The notes under the pieces are model-generated. The model searched no databases. It worked only from the letters and a program-made list of their open reading frames with translations, and was not told where the DNA came from. Shown here piece by piece: positions 3,628-13,645 of a stretch of DNA of 64,000 bases. Source of the DNA: Promethearchaeota archaeon (GTDB lineage: Archaea > Asgardarchaeota > Lokiarchaeia > Sigyniarchaeales > SOKP01); the NCBI GenBank assembly GCA_048940925.1, contig JBHLOC010000004.1, forward strand, positions 32,001-96,000, in the 5' to 3' direction. The stretch's first letter is position 1. Each line of letters opens with the position of its first letter. A program made the position numbers and the translations under genes.

Positions 3628-4188
3628 TTGGATATGAATAGAGAAGAGTGGCAAAAGTCGAAGGGAGAAGAAATACTTAGAGAATTTGGTATTAAAGAAG
3701 ACCAAAAAATATTAGATTTTGGATGTGGATCAGGAGTATATTCAATCATTGCTTCGAGAATAGTAGGTAACACAGGGAAAATTTATGCGCTTGATTGTGA
3801 GGAAGCCCCATTAGAAGAGTTATCAAGCAAAATCACAACTCAAAATATTAGTAATATTGAAATCATAAAAACTTCGAAAAAAATATCGATTCCATTGAAA
3901 TCTGATTCTCTAGATGTAGTATTAATGTATGATGTATATCATTTACTTGAAAAGGATGATCGAATCCAATTGTTAGATGAGATACATCGAGTTTTAAAAA
4001 GTAATAATGGGATTCTATCTTATTTTGCTACTCATATAGGTTCTTATGGAATTCAATTAAATAAAGTCCAAGAACAAATAAAGAAAGCAGGTTTTGAATT
4101 TATAGAGCAGTTTAAGCGCCCAATGTTTCATTGGACTTGGATTGAGCAAGGTATGATTTTTAAATATAAAAAAATAGGAAAAAAATAA
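3628..4188 (+). CDS. Class I SAM-dependent methyltransferase
   Basis: ILDFGCGSG motif I; DVVLMYDVYH; EIHRVLK. Confidence 0.92.
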   Translation: MDMNREEWQKSKGEEILREFGIKEDQKILDFGCGSGVYSIIASRIVGNTGKIYALDCEEAPLEELSSKITTQNISNIEIIKTSKKISIPLKSDSLDVVLMYDVYHLLEKDDRIQLLDEIHRVLKSNNGILSYFATHIGSYGIQLNKVQEQIKKAGFEFIEQFKRPMFHWTWIEQGMIFKYKKIGKK

Positions 4189-4190
4189 AA

Positions 4191-4961
4191 TTATTTTCTC
4201 GCTGTAAATATTCCGAATCCTGTGATATTCTCATATCTTATATTTTTGAAATTGTATTTATTTAATAATTTTTCCCAGTGCTCTTTATTCCTGAAAGCAA
4301 AGCAACACAAGCCACTAAATGCTACTAATTGCCATGACGTTCGATTCCATTCACTCAAGTAAAGATATCCATCAGGCTTTAAAACGCGATAAATCTCTTG
4401 CAGTGCTTTATCTTGACCGTTTGGTTCATGCACTTCATGAAGTACTGAAGAAACATTAACAATATCAAATGTATTTTTTTCAAAAGGGATGTTAGAAGCA
4501 GAACCATATTGAAAAGTAGTTCTGTCTTCAACTTTTTCAATTCTAGCATTATTTTGTACCTTATCTAAAGCATTACCCGGAATTGCTAGTTTTGAATAAA
4601 TATCAATACCGTATAAAAGTCCTCCTTTCTTTAATTCTTTAGCAATTCTAATCGCTGTTCTTCCAGTTCCACATCCTACGTCTAAAATCTGGGGATTATC
4701 AATTTCTTCTAATGCTTTCATTCTAGCAATTAAATCTATTTTTGGCATTTTTCGTAATAACAATATATGCATCGTAATCATTCCAATACCTGGCCATAAA
4801 AATACCAAAACGATAGCTAAACCCGAAATAATAAAAATTATTTGCACTACTCCATCTATTAAGAATCCATAAATAAAAACAGATAAACCTATTAATCCTA
4901 TGATATTGAATCCAATAATTAGATTCTTCACATACCATCCATATTTAGGTTTTGCTTCCAT
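4191..4961 (-). CDS. Class I SAM-dependent methyltransferase with N-terminal TM helices
   Basis: Two N-terminal TMs; ILDVGCGTG; FDIVNVSSVLHEV; EIYRVLKPDG. Confidence 0.92.
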   Translation of the reverse strand: MEAKPKYGWYVKNLIIGFNIIGLIGLSVFIYGFLIDGVVQIIFIISGLAIVLVFLWPGIGMITMHILLLRKMPKIDLIARMKALEEIDNPQILDVGCGTGRTAIRIAKELKKGGLLYGIDIYSKLAIPGNALDKVQNNARIEKVEDRTTFQYGSASNIPFEKNTFDIVNVSSVLHEVHEPNGQDKALQEIYRVLKPDGYLYLSEWNRTSWQLVAFSGLCCFAFRNKEHWEKLLNKYNFKNIRYENITGFGIFTARK

Positions 4962-9749: not shown

Positions 9750-9915
9750 TGATTTATATCATTCTATTTGACTTCTCGCTGAATTTCCAGCGCATAAAAA
9801 AATTGGACTTGTTTTTGCCATATTAATTTCTCCTAATTTCGATTTTTAATGAAAAAATCCTTTTAATATCGACTTATATAAAATATATAGTTTCATAATG
9901 AGTAAATAACTCACT

Positions 9916-10881
9916 TTAAAATCCATTTTTCCATTTTTTAAAAGAACCAAAACCTTCCTTTTCAAATTTAATTTGTTTATTTTTTTTATCAAAAATAATT
10001 GAAAGAAAATAAGAAGATCTTCTTGAATAACTTTCAGCCAAGATTAACACAATTTGAATTGAATTTTTGTTTTCTTGGAAAAATGGAATAATTGAATCCC
10101 ATTTATGAAAGAATCTGTATTCCTGACTTAGACTCTCAGCTAATTCATAGTATAACATATTCTCTGAATTTTTTAAAATATTATGATTAAAAATTTCTTT
10201 TCGTCTAGAGGAAAACACAAATTTTTTCATCAATTTAAAAGTAATACCATCTTCATTTATGTCTTTCTCATAAATAAAATAAGACCACGGTAAAATACCT
10301 GGAACATAATGTTGATTCTTTTGAAGTTTCACTTGTACTAAGATTCTTAAAATTGCGCGTGCTCCAAAATAACATAAATATATGGAAGAATATATCGTGG
10401 TAAGAGCTCGAAATAAATAGTAATTTGGAATTGTAAGGAATAGCATAAATAAAGTAAAAAAGTTTATACCTGAAAAGATAAAAAGAATAGGATTTATTGC
10501 TCTGTCAGCGAGAAATCTATACTCTTTTTTTGAAATCGGGTAAAAAATCGGAACTTTTGAAGCCGTAAAGAGATCTAGAGTCACATGAAGACTATATCCT
10601 ATGAAACCAGCAATCCAAATCTCAATAAATATACCATTTGTTAAAATTGATATGATTAAACTAAAAATACCAGTAAAAAATAAACCACTGACATAAGAGT
10701 GAGTGCCTGCTCTATGTGATAAGTAATATAATTTATATTTTCTCGATATTGGTTCAAATAATAGATCAATATCAGGGAAAATAGCCATAACGACCAAAAA
10801 GAGGACTGATTCTGAAGATAAAGTAAGTACTAGAGGGAAATATGCTAAAATTCCAATAAGTGTATGTGTAAAAATATCCAT
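9916..10881 (-). CDS. Membrane-bound metal-dependent hydrolase (YdjM-like)
   Basis: MDIFTHTLIG; FPDID; HRAGTHS; SLHVTLDLFT. Confidence 0.88.
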   Translation of the reverse strand: MDIFTHTLIGILAYFPLVLTLSSESVLFLVVMAIFPDIDLLFEPISRKYKLYYLSHRAGTHSYVSGLFFTGIFSLIISILTNGIFIEIWIAGFIGYSLHVTLDLFTASKVPIFYPISKKEYRFLADRAINPILFIFSGINFFTLFMLFLTIPNYYLFRALTTIYSSIYLCYFGARAILRILVQVKLQKNQHYVPGILPWSYFIYEKDINEDGITFKLMKKFVFSSRRKEIFNHNILKNSENMLYYELAESLSQEYRFFHKWDSIIPFFQENKNSIQIVLILAESYSRRSSYFLSIIFDKKNKQIKFEKEGFGSFKKWKNGF

Positions 10882-10949
10882 TTTTAATATTAAAGGATTT
10901 AAATTTTTATTTTTTGAAAATTTATTGCTTTTAAGGAGGCAATCCTATT

Positions 10950-10985
10950 GTCAATCTTTTACTATCATTTTTTAAAAGACTTCAT
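10950..10985 (-). promoter_or_regulatory. Putative SECIS element (eukaryote/Lokiarchaeota type)
   Basis: Minus strand AUGA-AGUCUUUUA-AAAAAUGAUAG-UAAAAGAUU-GAC: AUGA/GA core, 9-bp stem (one G.U), A-rich apical loop; begins 5 nt after the TGA at 10991-10993. Confidence 0.75.
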
Positions 10986-10990
10986 TCAAA

Positions 10991-11470
10991 TCATTCATTA
11001 ATTCTTTTAACTTCAAAATAATGAGCGAATTCTTCATCATTTTTTCCAAATTTTTTCATGATAATCCTTTTAAAAGTACCAAAATCTACACGTTCCTTCA
11101 TGACATCAGCTCATCAATCAGCATGGACTACTATTGTAATCTCACTTTCAGGAATTAAGTTAAAATTAATATCCTCCTGAAGCGGTATGAACTCTCTATT
11201 GGGACCATAAGCATTTACAGCGCAGTCTTCATAAATCTTATTCTCCTCCGAATCCCAAATTAATTGGAGGAAGCTATGAATTAAGCCTTTATATATTGGA
11301 AAAATAGAGTTTTTTGGATTTTCATACATATGTTTATCTAAAATACTCAATGCATCAATAATAGTTCCATCATCTTTTAAATCTAAATTGTATTCTATCC
11401 CCTTTGATAACTTTTTTTCAGGATCAGGGGCAAATATTGTTAGTTTAATATTCTTAATTCTAAAATTCAC
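10991..11470 (-). CDS. Putative selenoprotein: beta-grasp (ubiquitin/MoaD-like) domain + Sec-Sec + 39-aa tail (159 aa; 118 aa if the first TGA terminates)
   Basis: ...ITIVVHAD-TGA(11114-6)-TGA(11111-3)-ADVMKERVDFGTFKRIIMKKFGKNDEEFAHYFEVKRINE-TGA, followed by a SECIS-like hairpin. N-terminal pattern (LDLKDDGTIIDALSIL...LIPESEITIV) resembles the MoaD/SAMP fold but has no terminal GG. Confidence 0.7.
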
Positions 11471-11503: not shown

Positions 11504-11917
11504 CTAAATAAGCCCTTTAGCTTTAAGTAGTTTGGGTAATTCCTTTCTAAGAGTAATTGAGGAAGAAACTTTTATCTCTCCATCAAGAACCACACATTTA
11601 TTATGAAGATTTAATTTTCTAGCTTCTTTTGAATTTAGGTTTTTTGTATCGTAGTCGATATGTTTTATATAAGGGGTGAGCTCTACAAAAACACGATTTA
11701 TGAATTTATCCCACTCACAAGCACATACATCTAAAGGCACATAGATATCTACTTTCAATTTTCCTTCTTTTAAGCTTTTAAGATTATCTAAGCTACAGCT
11801 TTCTTTTCCACAATGTAAATCTGAATCAATACTACAAAAATCTCCCCAATAATCAGGTGATGCCCTAATTTCTTTCATAACCTTTTCTACAGTTTTATCT
11901 ATCTCATGATCAGACAT
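11504..11917 (-). CDS. Cys-rich thioredoxin-like / ArsD-like protein
   Basis: KVDIYVPLDVCACEW (CxC after the first strand) and KCVVLDGEIKV...LRKELPKLL resemble the ArsD/Trx-like fold; N-terminal C-x7-C-x4-C; lies directly downstream of acr3. Confidence 0.6.
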   Translation of the reverse strand: MSDHEIDKTVEKVMKEIRASPDYWGDFCSIDSDLHCGKESCSLDNLKSLKEGKLKVDIYVPLDVCACEWDKFINRVFVELTPYIKHIDYDTKNLNSKEARKLNLHNKCVVLDGEIKVSSSITLRKELPKLLKAKGLI

Positions 11918-11990: not shown

Positions 11991-13049
11991 TTATTGAGTT
12001 TTCCAAAATCTCCGTTTTTGAAGATATCGTCCCAAATATACAATTGAAAGCATTACTGGAACCTCCCAAAACAATCCCATTGTAGTTCCTAATGCTGCGA
12101 TTGAACCAATTCCATACATAGCAATAGCTGTAGCGATAGCAATTTCAAAATGACTTGATGAACCAATAATTACTGTAATGATCGCTTCTCTATATTTTAA
12201 TTTAAATAGTTTCGTGATGAAAATATTATATCCAACAACAATTACAAATCCAAGTAATAACGGTATCGATACTAAAAGCAAGAGTTTTGGATTATGTATT
12301 AAGACATCTCCATTCATTGAGAAAAGAACAATCAAAGTTGTTAGTAAAGCTACAATTGATATCTTTCCGACTATAGGTCTATAGGTATTGTTAAACCAAT
12401 CTTCACCTTTAGAAGATATTAATAATCTTTTACTAATTACTCCTAATAGAAGGGGAAGCCCAATAAAGATAAAGATCGAGACTAATAGTAAAATCCAATC
12501 AACAGGTATGTTTTGAATGCCTGTTAATAATGTTACCATAGGAGCATAACCGAATATTATTGTTATCGTATTAAGACTTGTGTTCACTACATTTTGTTCT
12601 TGATTCCCTTTTGCCATCCATCCCCATACTAAAACCATCGCCGTACAAGGACTTGAACTTAATAAAATTATGGCAACTATTAATTGTTCATACCCAGGTA
12701 CAAAAATTCGAGCCATAAGCAAACCAACAAATGGAGCAATTAACCAATTAGAGATTATTGTCAAGATTATTGGTTTGGGATTTCTTCCTAATTTTTTTAA
12801 TTCAGAGACTTGTAGGTTCAACATTGCAGGATACATCATTAAAAATAAACAGATCCCGATAGGTATAGAAATTTGACCTATACTCAAAGCATTTATAGCT
12901 TGGCTAATTCCAGGAATTATCTGGGAAAAAAGAATTCCAATGACGATGCATAATGCAACCCATAAGGGAAGAAACTTTTCAAAAAATCCTAGTTTTTTAG
13001 ATTCTGCATCTTTAGTTATTGAAATTTCCTCTGTTTCTGATACACTCAT
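11991..13049 (-). CDS. acr3: ACR3-family arsenite efflux transporter
   Basis: LGFFEKFLPLWVALCIVIG; IGICLFLMMYPAM; NWLIAPF; SPCTAMVLVW; SSHFEIAIATAIAMYG; FWEVPVML. Confidence 0.96.
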   Translation of the reverse strand: MSVSETEEISITKDAESKKLGFFEKFLPLWVALCIVIGILFSQIIPGISQAINALSIGQISIPIGICLFLMMYPAMLNLQVSELKKLGRNPKPIILTIISNWLIAPFVGLLMARIFVPGYEQLIVAIILLSSSPCTAMVLVWGWMAKGNQEQNVVNTSLNTITIIFGYAPMVTLLTGIQNIPVDWILLLVSIFIFIGLPLLLGVISKRLLISSKGEDWFNNTYRPIVGKISIVALLTTLIVLFSMNGDVLIHNPKLLLLVSIPLLLGFVIVVGYNIFITKLFKLKYREAIITVIIGSSSHFEIAIATAIAMYGIGSIAALGTTMGLFWEVPVMLSIVYLGRYLQKRRFWKTQ

Positions 13050-13243: not shown

Positions 13244-13645
13244 GTGATGGTAATAAATAAAAGGCGCACTATTGAGATAACAGACTCCCTCGAGAGTTGT
13301 ATTAACATGACTGAAATCGATGTTAAAACCTACTTTCGAGATTTGCAAGATTTGGGGAAAAATTTAGAAAAATCTAATAAATTTAAGAAATTATTAGAAT
13401 TTTGTTATGTAATTGGTAATAAAGAGCGTTTAAAAATAATTGCAGCATTAAAAGATAATGACCATTGCGTTTGTGAATTAGAAGCAATCTTAGATAAATC
13501 GCAACCATCAATATCACATCATCTTAGAATTCTTGAAAGCATTGGGCTTATAAGAAGCTTTAAAAAAGGTAAATTTACTCATTATGACATTATTAAAGAA
13601 ACAGTTAATTCATATTTAGATCTACTAAATCAAGAATTAATTTAA
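13244..13645 (+). CDS. arsR: ArsR/SmtB metalloregulator
   Basis: ERLKIIAAL...HCVCELEAILDKSQPSISHHLRILESIGLI...KKGKFTHY; CVC As(III)-type site; divergent from acr3. Confidence 0.92.
   Translation: MMVINKRRTIEITDSLESCINMTEIDVKTYFRDLQDLGKNLEKSNKFKKLLEFCYVIGNKERLKIIAALKDNDHCVCELEAILDKSQPSISHHLRILESIGLIRSFKKGKFTHYDIIKETVNSYLDLLNQELI

Follow-up and report, generated by a model that had tools for sequence, protein, structure and literature searches.

A putative selenoprotein with adjacent selenocysteines and a Loki-type SECIS element in an arsenic operon of a Promethearchaeota archaeon

The Lokiarchaeial selenoproteins described with a lokiSECIS, a selenocysteine insertion sequence (SECIS) element, are HdrA-VhuD/FrhD, VhuU/FrhA, PrxL and SelD (Mariotti 2016, PMC4989117; Huang 2024, PMC11227280). 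The lokiSECIS adjoin stop codons, often UGA, and a minimal-distance rule has been proposed for a UGA near the SECIS (Mariotti 2016, PMC4989117). In a 64,000-nucleotide stretch of DNA from a Promethearchaeota archaeon (assembly GCA_048940925.1, contig JBHLOC010000004.1, positions 32,001 to 96,000 of the forward strand; hereafter the window, with positions counted from its first letter), we analyzed a gene whose reading frame continues across two adjacent UGA codons and ends immediately upstream of such an element. This gene very probably encodes a true selenoprotein with two adjacent selenocysteine (Sec) residues that are decoded via a Loki-type SECIS, a conclusion that, for the insertion of Sec itself, is drawn from sequence. 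The locus as a whole is best explained by a Sec-Sec selenoprotein with a role in an arsenic operon, an explanation that we consider likely.

Similar to the described lokiSECIS genes, the gene of the window is followed, directly after its stop codon, by a kink-turn SECIS (AUGA...A-rich loop...GA) in the 3' untranslated region (UTR), has one SECIS for more than one UGA and tolerates a terminator UGA beside the SECIS. In contrast to these genes, it belongs to an unrelated protein family with a predicted beta-grasp fold, its predicted Sec residues (U) are adjacent (UU, CUU and UGUU) rather than arranged in CxxU/UxxC-type sites, and it is found in an arsenic operon, while the described genes are found in a hydrogenase/heterodisulfide reductase context. 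Selenoproteins are also known from metal-resistance loci of bacteria, such as NF041239 Moor_selen_rel (NCBIfam) and MbdU and SaoC (2026 review, PMC13188914). Like the product of the window's gene, they are small and are encoded at metal or metalloid resistance loci, with Sec as a presumed ligand of the metal, but they have bacterial SECIS within the open reading frame (ORF) and other folds. No NCBIfam match was found for the selenoprotein of the window at E up to 1, and the best genome-wide match of NF041239 (E 0.139) lies elsewhere.

Adjacent UGA codons and the 3' SECIS element

Gene callers close the ORF (11114-11470) at the first TGA, after 118 codons that follow from a GTG start codon and end in ...VVHAD. 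An earlier note on this DNA, made from its letters alone, had read HAD-TGA-TGA here, followed by 39 sense codons, a TGA at 10991 and a hairpin 5 nt further on, all of which are present in the sequence (Table 1). In the decoding proposed here, the ribosome would read the two adjacent UGAs as Sec, the single kink-turn SECIS of the 3' UTR, located about 130 nt downstream, would direct both recodings, and translation would end at the third UGA, which would be too close to the SECIS for recoding.

Table 1. Positions of the features discussed, counted from the first letter of the window
Feature	Position	Strand	Description
Predicted selenoprotein coding sequence	10994..11470	(-)	159 aa, GTG start (11468-11470); beta-grasp 1-118, Sec119, Sec120, helical tail 121-159
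First in-frame UGA, predicted Sec119	11114..11116	(-)	TGA in 53/53 members; gapless motif alignment with a conserved Cys
Second in-frame UGA, predicted Sec120	11111..11113	(-)	Predicted Sec in all Asgard members examined
C-terminal tail, 39 sense codons	10994..11110	(-)	Coding; overlooked by gene callers; predicted helices pack on the beta-grasp
True terminator UGA	10991..10993	(-)	SECIS core 5 nt further downstream; orthologues stop at the same place
Loki-type, eukaryote-like, type I SECIS	10948..10989	(-)	Covariation; model R1, 78.6 bits
SECIS helix I	10987-10989 paired with 10948-10950	(-)	UUG-A-AUGA ... GA-CAA
SECIS 3-nt bulge and AUGA	within 10982-10986	(-)	AUGA itself 10982-10985
SECIS helix II	10974-10981 paired with 10953-10960	(-)	8 bp (8-9 bp)
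SECIS apical loop	10961-10973	(-)	A-rich, 13 nt
SECIS 3' GA	10951-10952	(-)	
Second short hairpin	10933..10947	(-)	5-bp stem, UUGCC loop, directly 3' of the SECIS; compensatory changes
CxC protein, upstream neighbor	11504..11917	(-)	137 aa, 33-nt gap; Cys-rich N-terminal arm, thioredoxin-fold domain
ACR3 arsenite efflux transporter	11991..13049	(-)	TIGR00832, 288 bits against an equivalog cut-off of 282.8; PF01758
ArsR/SmtB metalloregulator, divergent	13244..13645	(+)	PF01022, NF033788
Remnant of arsC of the low-molecular-weight protein tyrosine phosphatase (LMW-PTP) type	9759..9845	(-)	20-codon ORF MAKTSPIFLCAGNSARSQIE; only the CX5R P-loop left

A six-frame search revealed matches in 136 of 400 Asgard genomes, among them 116 of the 134 genomes of the window's own family. 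Among the matches listed, nearly all cross exactly two TGAs and reach about query position 156, and relatives with 26-31% identity, which come from other families and classes, likewise cross two TGAs and keep the tail. Both internal codons are TGA in each of the 53 distinct members that were cut out (106 of 106 codons) and are never TAA or TAG, while the terminators of these members (38 TAA, 12 TGA and 3 TAG) reflect the usual choice of stop codons in these AT-rich genomes. Among 31 orthologues, the ratio of nonsynonymous to synonymous substitution rates (dN/dS) was 0.13 for the tail, compared to 0.11 in the body, at dS above 1. Of the 33 third codon positions in the tail, 31 were variable. 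The protein search yielded about 170 homologues, and the annotated product is almost always 118 aa long with VHAD as its end. The TGA-TGA is the same, without differences, in contigs assembled by independent studies, so that the pair is not an assembly error. Thus, three points raised by the earlier note are settled in favor of read-through: homologues keep TGA-TGA with neither TAA nor TAG at these positions, the sequence past the TGAs is conserved as protein, and independent assemblies agree on the pair.

Two further observations concern individual copies of the gene. The short contigs of one sediment metagenome pile up at 11097-11132 (HAD-U-U-ADVM) to a depth of about 300, compared to about 27, and the motif region is therefore near-identical across many co-occurring strains or species. 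At locus L044 (G162:C90), a U-U-A copy at about 4040-4480(+) has acquired one more in-frame TGA, its third, in place of the tail's conserved Arg and has a SECIS core with ACGA in place of AUGA, and this copy is probably a decaying paralogue.

The 3' hairpin is a SECIS. It has the kink-turn geometry of helix I, a 3-nt bulge, tandem G.A/A.G pairs and helix II. In an alignment of 38 downstream regions, the G that closes helix I, the AUGA, three As at the apex and, on the 3' side, the A-C behind the sheared G are invariant (alignment columns G8, A10, U11, G12, A13, AAA and A44-C45). When helix I, helix II and the additional hairpin described below were specified, 93.3% of the cells were paired, compared to 44-53% with slid partners; compensatory changes were found in 14 of the 16 pairs, and the observed values were reached by none of 500 shuffles. 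A covariance model, R1, that was built from the SECIS of this selenoprotein family alone found only five further sites elsewhere in the 4.8-Mb genome, three of which directly follow FlpD/VhuD genes, each with two in-frame UGAs, and one of which follows an HdrA-like gene, likewise with in-frame UGAs. Applied to the relatives' loci, R1 gave 55 matches at or beside family members. The kink-turn hairpin of the earlier note is thus borne out by covarying stems and by the occurrence of the same element behind known selenoprotein genes of this genome.

The first UGA lies 131 nt from the SECIS core in the window and 104-144 nt (median, 131) in the family, in which the core is found -1 to +25 nt from the stop codon and terminating codons have a spacing of 0-25 nt. 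These distances fit the minimal-distance rule, by which a UGA next to the SECIS is not recoded, and the third UGA would act as the terminator. The same suggestion had been made in the earlier note and fits the UGA stops that are found next to lokiSECIS (Mariotti 2016, PMC4989117).

A second, shorter hairpin directly follows the SECIS (Table 1). Both sides have changed in four of its five pairs, and the stem is stronger. It is present after helix I in each SECIS detected in this genome (L069-L073) and in the family, and a text search on hairpin and stem terms found no mention of it in Mariotti 2016. It may serve as a terminator, in protein binding or as a stabiliser of the SECIS. Model R1 matched, with 36 bits, a site at G000:C63:88542-88611(+) (L071:1209-1577) that overlaps the end of a small ORF with an N-terminal transmembrane helix, a C-K-R-U (CxxU) motif and no Pfam family; this ORF may be another unlisted selenoprotein of the genome. 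Strong matches were also found in relatives' ars loci at L041:1393-1463(-) (87 bits) and L050:2690-2761(-) (76 bits), and no UGA-containing ORF was found upstream of either. These two elements may be orphan or duplicated SECIS or may be part of unrecognised genes.

Of the machinery that the earlier note had proposed to look for, the genome encodes tRNA-Sec, SepSecS, SelD and a SelB-like factor. The tRNA-Sec (63.7 bits, above the Rfam cut-off; G000:C3 50049-50137(+)) lies 0.6 kb from SepSecS (G000:C3 50770-51927(+)) and 4 kb from a SelB-like GTPase (G000:C3 45426-46322(-)) that scored 240.3 bits, just under the bacterial model cut-off of 242, so that these genes are clustered within G000:C3:45426-51927. 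Two tandem selD genes are present on contig C72 (3553-4317 and 5278-6078), each with an in-frame TGA.

Motif types, evolution and predicted fold

Three motif types were distinguished in a gapless alignment: D-U-U-A, as found in the window, G-C-U-U, and S-U-G-U-U with three Sec. The G-C-U-U type comprises paralogues that often adjoin a D-U-U-A copy and all of the deep-branching members. A profile search of 1.84 billion representatives returned only 86 clusters, some of them with Bathyarchaeial homologues that lack Sec and conserve one single Cys, within G-x-C-I-T/S-D/E. In the gapless alignment, this residue falls on the C-U-U Cys and on Sec119, an outcome that answers, for the first of the two positions, the earlier note's call for Cys aligned with Sec. 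In the maximum-likelihood tree, the Sec-less group is split from the Asgard group (100/99), the C-U-U forms are basal, and the U-U-A forms (96/95) and the U-G-U-U forms (100/100) are single derived clades. Because the tree was rooted at midpoint, the direction of motif change is inferred: the ancestral Asgard motif would be G-C-U-U, from which the window's clade would have shifted to U-U-A, and the first Sec appears to have replaced an anciently conserved Cys. The HAD-U-U-AD motif of the earlier note is therefore present in the window, but it would be a derived variant of the older G-C-U-U form. One Asgard-like homologue with C-V-S appears to have lost Sec secondarily. Cys83 (in EDC), considered as a possible third ligand particular to the U-U-A type, is conserved in that clade but is present too in some C-U-U members. 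It should be noted that a CX5R oxyanion loop starting from the motif Cys (C-UUEKV-R in some paralogues) was considered and rejected, as the family as a whole does not conserve it.

No Pfam or NCBIfam family was found for the 118-aa part, the tail or the read-through product, and a profile search of PDB sequences gave a chance-level match only (E 0.25). In a protein-cluster search, the 118-aa part found its own cluster, a Bathyarchaeota cluster and weak ThiS/Urm1 leads (0.78-0.81). An AlphaFold2 model built from 29 sequences, with Cys standing in for Sec, had a predicted local distance difference test score (pLDDT) of 89 and a predicted template modeling score (pTM) of 0.86. The modeled beta-grasp consists of strands 5-13, 25-32, 83-88 and 110-115 and helix 37-50, and the modeled tail consists of helices 121-125, 130-141 and 149-152 with pLDDT of 84-96. 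The best structural matches were the transcobalamin beta-domain, CysO, HVO_2177, SAMP1, MoaD-type proteins and Urm1 (Z 5.7-7.3; CysO 7.1, SAMP1 6.5 and MoaD-related proteins 5.9-6.1), with Foldseek E of about 1e-2 and probability of about 1. The model thus suggests a MoaD/ThiS/Urm1-like beta-grasp protein with three short added helices, in which the scores indicate a shared fold only. The beta-grasp assignment made in the earlier note is favored by this model and by the matches to SAMP1, Urm1, CysO and MoaD.

Among known systems, the sulfur carriers MoaD, ThiS, CysO, Urm1 and SAMP are the best structural matches (Z 5.7-7.1). The whole of each carrier is matched to the segment from residue 1 to about 118-121, so that the Sec dyad, which comes just behind the last strand, would lie at the place of their Gly-Gly end. 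Unlike the carriers, the selenoprotein has no C-terminal Gly-Gly of the kind that is adenylated and thiocarboxylated, as ...VVHAD-U-U-AD... runs on for 39 residues into helices, and its reactive group would be side-chain selenolates, whereas that of the carriers is a thiocarboxylate. No ThiS or Urm1 Pfam match was found for the selenoprotein.

Arsenic-operon context and proposed function

The selenoprotein gene is the last of a co-oriented run in which ACR3 comes first and the CxC protein second; YdjM and HD genes follow. The CxC protein is found beside the family in 41 of 56 loci and ACR3 in 35 of 56, where most of these loci have flanks of only 1.5 kb. ArsR and LMW-PTP ArsC recur in relatives' loci, and ArsM is also found in relatives' operons. 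Relatives have an intact ArsC downstream of the selenoprotein gene, so that the arsC of the window's locus has decayed. For the CxC neighbor no Pfam or NCBIfam family was found; residues 50-137 were modeled with pLDDT above 90, thioredoxins were the top fold matches, and C-A-C occupies the CxxC position. In other genomes the protein has SCC-rich arms, and in one genome its domain is fused to the C-terminus of ArsM (L050:4547-5656(-); NF008823, 351 bits), which ties the domain to arsenic chemistry. The CxC protein is a candidate partner of the selenoprotein.

We also noticed that ACR3 and the CxC gene are separated by two further genes in the ars operons of many relatives (L053, L055, L056, L057, L059 and L060). 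One encodes a 567-aa fusion of a CpaM-like methyltransferase and an HgcA-like corrinoid protein (L059:1607-3307(+); 174-177 bits, below the cut-off) and the other an HgcB-like 2x[4Fe-4S] ferredoxin (L057:3201-3656(+)). Together, these HgcAB-like genes could make up a corrinoid-dependent module for the methylation of metalloids.

Selenolates are soft ligands with strong As(III) binding, and the As(III) sites of ArsR, ArsD and ArsM are clustered thiolates. The metallochaperone ArsD, which is encoded in ars operons, has the vicinal Cys12-Cys13 plus Cys18. Like ArsD, the selenoprotein is a small ars-operon protein with a vicinal chalcogen pair, and the ArsD pair plus its third ligand serve as the model for the hand-over of As(III) proposed here. 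In contrast, ArsD is a thioredoxin-fold protein that relies on Cys alone and works for the ArsA ATPase, while the selenoprotein has a predicted beta-grasp fold, would use Sec and is encoded in an operon with ACR3 and without ArsA. With its thioredoxin fold, the CxC neighbor is structurally more ArsD-like than the selenoprotein is, but neither protein gave a match to PF06953 (ArsD) in Pfam.

On balance, these comparisons and the gene neighborhood favor an arsenic-related role for the selenoprotein. Given that two to three adjacent chalcogens are kept and that the gene is tied to ACR3 and to the CxC protein, capture and hand-over of As(III) would be the favored form of such a role; a specific function as an As(III) chaperone or relay is put forward only tentatively. 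As(III) would be bound on the selenolates of the Sec-Sec site, the neighboring CxC protein might exchange As(III) with the selenoprotein or keep the Sec dyad reduced, and arsenite would thus be buffered or channelled towards ACR3. This might then be the first case of a selenoprotein whose adjacent selenolates serve to bind a toxic metalloid, relaying As(III) with its CxC partner to ACR3, a speculative reading under which the relay in relatives could also lead to ArsM or to the HgcAB-like corrinoid methylation module.

Several observations weigh against these readings. With regard to decoding, the earlier note had regarded the open frame as unusual, and while its 39 codons are confirmed, P is about 0.04 for 39 open codons in 29% GC DNA, so that the chance argument is marginal alone. 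An Rfam 15 scan of 10700-11300 with E up to 10 gave no match, where the published lokiSECIS model is not among the Rfam models. The folding energy of the hairpin was not better than that of shuffles (z = -0.02); because the DNA is AT-rich and the hairpin is no stabler than shuffles, folding energy alone is uninformative. The Sec120 column has Sec in all Asgard members and Ile or Val, never Cys, in the Sec-less homologues. With regard to the fold, the protein was modeled without Sec, and the matches are moderate (Z of about 7, E of about 1e-2), where Z below 8 may mean a common fold only. With regard to function, the U-U-A motif offers only two chalcogens, while As(III) sites usually have three, and the arsenic link is limited to the window's family of genomes. 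The deep-branching C-U-U members are found near genes for aldehyde:ferredoxin oxidoreductase (AOR), ferredoxins, and FrhB-like or prismane proteins, and the Sec-less homologues also lie outside ars contexts, from which it follows that the ancestral role was possibly redox or chalcogen handling.

The main rival to an As(III) relay, which we regard as somewhat unlikely, is that the dyad is a redox or chalcogen-transfer center, either a vicinal diselenide or selenenylsulfide or a persulfide or selenide carrier, with the CxC neighbor as its reductant. The location in ars operons would then have come about by secondary recruitment, such as to provide electrons for the reduction of arsenate or organoarsenicals. 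Consistent with this possibility are the predicted fold, the beta-grasp of MoaD, ThiS, CysO, SAMP and Urm1, with the dyad where the reactive C-terminus of these proteins lies, the thioredoxin fold of the neighbor, the position of basal C-U-U members beside AOR, ferredoxin and FrhB-like genes rather than ars genes, and the intact state of the selenoprotein gene at the window's locus, where arsC has decayed. Thioredoxin reductase has a C-terminal Gly-Cys-Sec-Gly redox center, and the G-C-U that precedes the second Sec in the family's older motif, Gly-Cys-Sec-Sec, likewise is a vicinal Cys-Sec after Gly in which an eight-membered selenenylsulfide ring is possible. In contrast to thioredoxin reductase, the motif is not C-terminal, has a second Sec and is not part of a flavoenzyme, and the proteins share no homology. 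Within the window's family of genomes, however, the gene is tied to ACR3, ArsR, ArsM and ArsC, an ArsM fusion exists for the CxC domain, whose Cys-rich arms are of a type common in As(III) binders, and the family conserves no oxyanion-binding CX5R loop, all of which argue for the relay over a redox center.

Whichever function applies, the read-through itself might be conditional, such that scarce selenium leads to the 118-residue product ending in ...HAD and abundant Sec-tRNA to the product of 159 residues, with the UGA pair as a selenium switch. Two consecutive UGAs would, on general grounds, be expected to be decoded less efficiently than one, and the modeled residues 1-118 amount to a beta-grasp domain that is complete by itself. 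On the other hand, purifying selection on the tail is as strong as that on the body, the tail packs confidently on the domain in the model, and a truncated product would lose exactly the conserved reactive residues, which makes such a switch improbable. Far less probable is a pair of genes, in which the 118-aa ORF would end at a tandem stop and a separate small ORF would start from the ATG that the window's subfamily has at codon 124, four codons past the TGA pair. Gene callers do stop at the first TGA, but the C-U-U and U-G-U-U members lack a start codon after the dyad but still have the tail in an unchanged frame, in-frame conservation covers the codons that separate the TGAs from the ATG, and the tandem codons are invariably TGA, though TAA is the usual stop, with a SECIS following the tail. 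Hardly any weight can be given to TGA as a genome-wide sense codon, for which six short-contig homologues called with table 4 (HAD-W-W-AD, then the same tail) might be cited, or to a decaying pseudogene, given that TGA closes 5 of the 41 long ORFs of the window as well as the selenoprotein gene itself, that further in-frame TGAs detected in the genome fall on the Sec sites of SelD, VhuD and HdrA, and that purifying selection in more than 130 genomes is incompatible with a pseudogene.

A proposed eighth Asgard selenoprotein family and its implications

Seven selenoprotein families have been published for Asgard archaea, namely SelD, FrhA/VhuU, HdrA, FrhD/VhuD, Prx-like, AhpF-N and DsbA-like (Huang 2024, PMC11227280). 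Pfam and NCBIfam searches with the read-through product and with its 118-aa part revealed no sequence homology to any of them. Neither the family nor its adjacent-Sec motif was found in Mariotti 2016, Sun 2021, Huang 2024, Valentin-Alvarado 2024 or the 2026 review, and a literature search on adjacent or vicinal Sec gave nothing relevant, in both cases with subscription-only literature outside the search. The 2026 review covers 119 prokaryotic selenoprotein families, and the strings of the adjacent-Sec motif were not found in its text (PMC13188914). The absence of the family from the published Asgard lists agrees with the earlier note, in which it could not be placed among the classic archaeal selenoprotein families. 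The Sec-Sec protein would thus represent an eighth Asgard selenoprotein family, unrelated to the seven that homology-based surveys have listed. It is found in most of the genomes sampled from the main Lokiarchaeial family and is truncated in every annotation examined; this gene, and probably others alike, needs SECIS-aware gene calling.

To our knowledge, adjacent Sec residues are very unusual, and the eukaryote-like SECIS system of Asgard archaea operates without a known SBP2. The family therefore offers a natural substrate for questions on the decoding of consecutive UGAs and on the minimal spacing between UGA and SECIS. A metallochaperone associated with ACR3 is not known to us from earlier work, and the selenoprotein would be a testable candidate for one. 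If the proposed decoding is true, the family would show, in nature, an archaeal ribosome decoding two to three neighboring UGAs from one eukaryote-like SECIS about 130 nt away.

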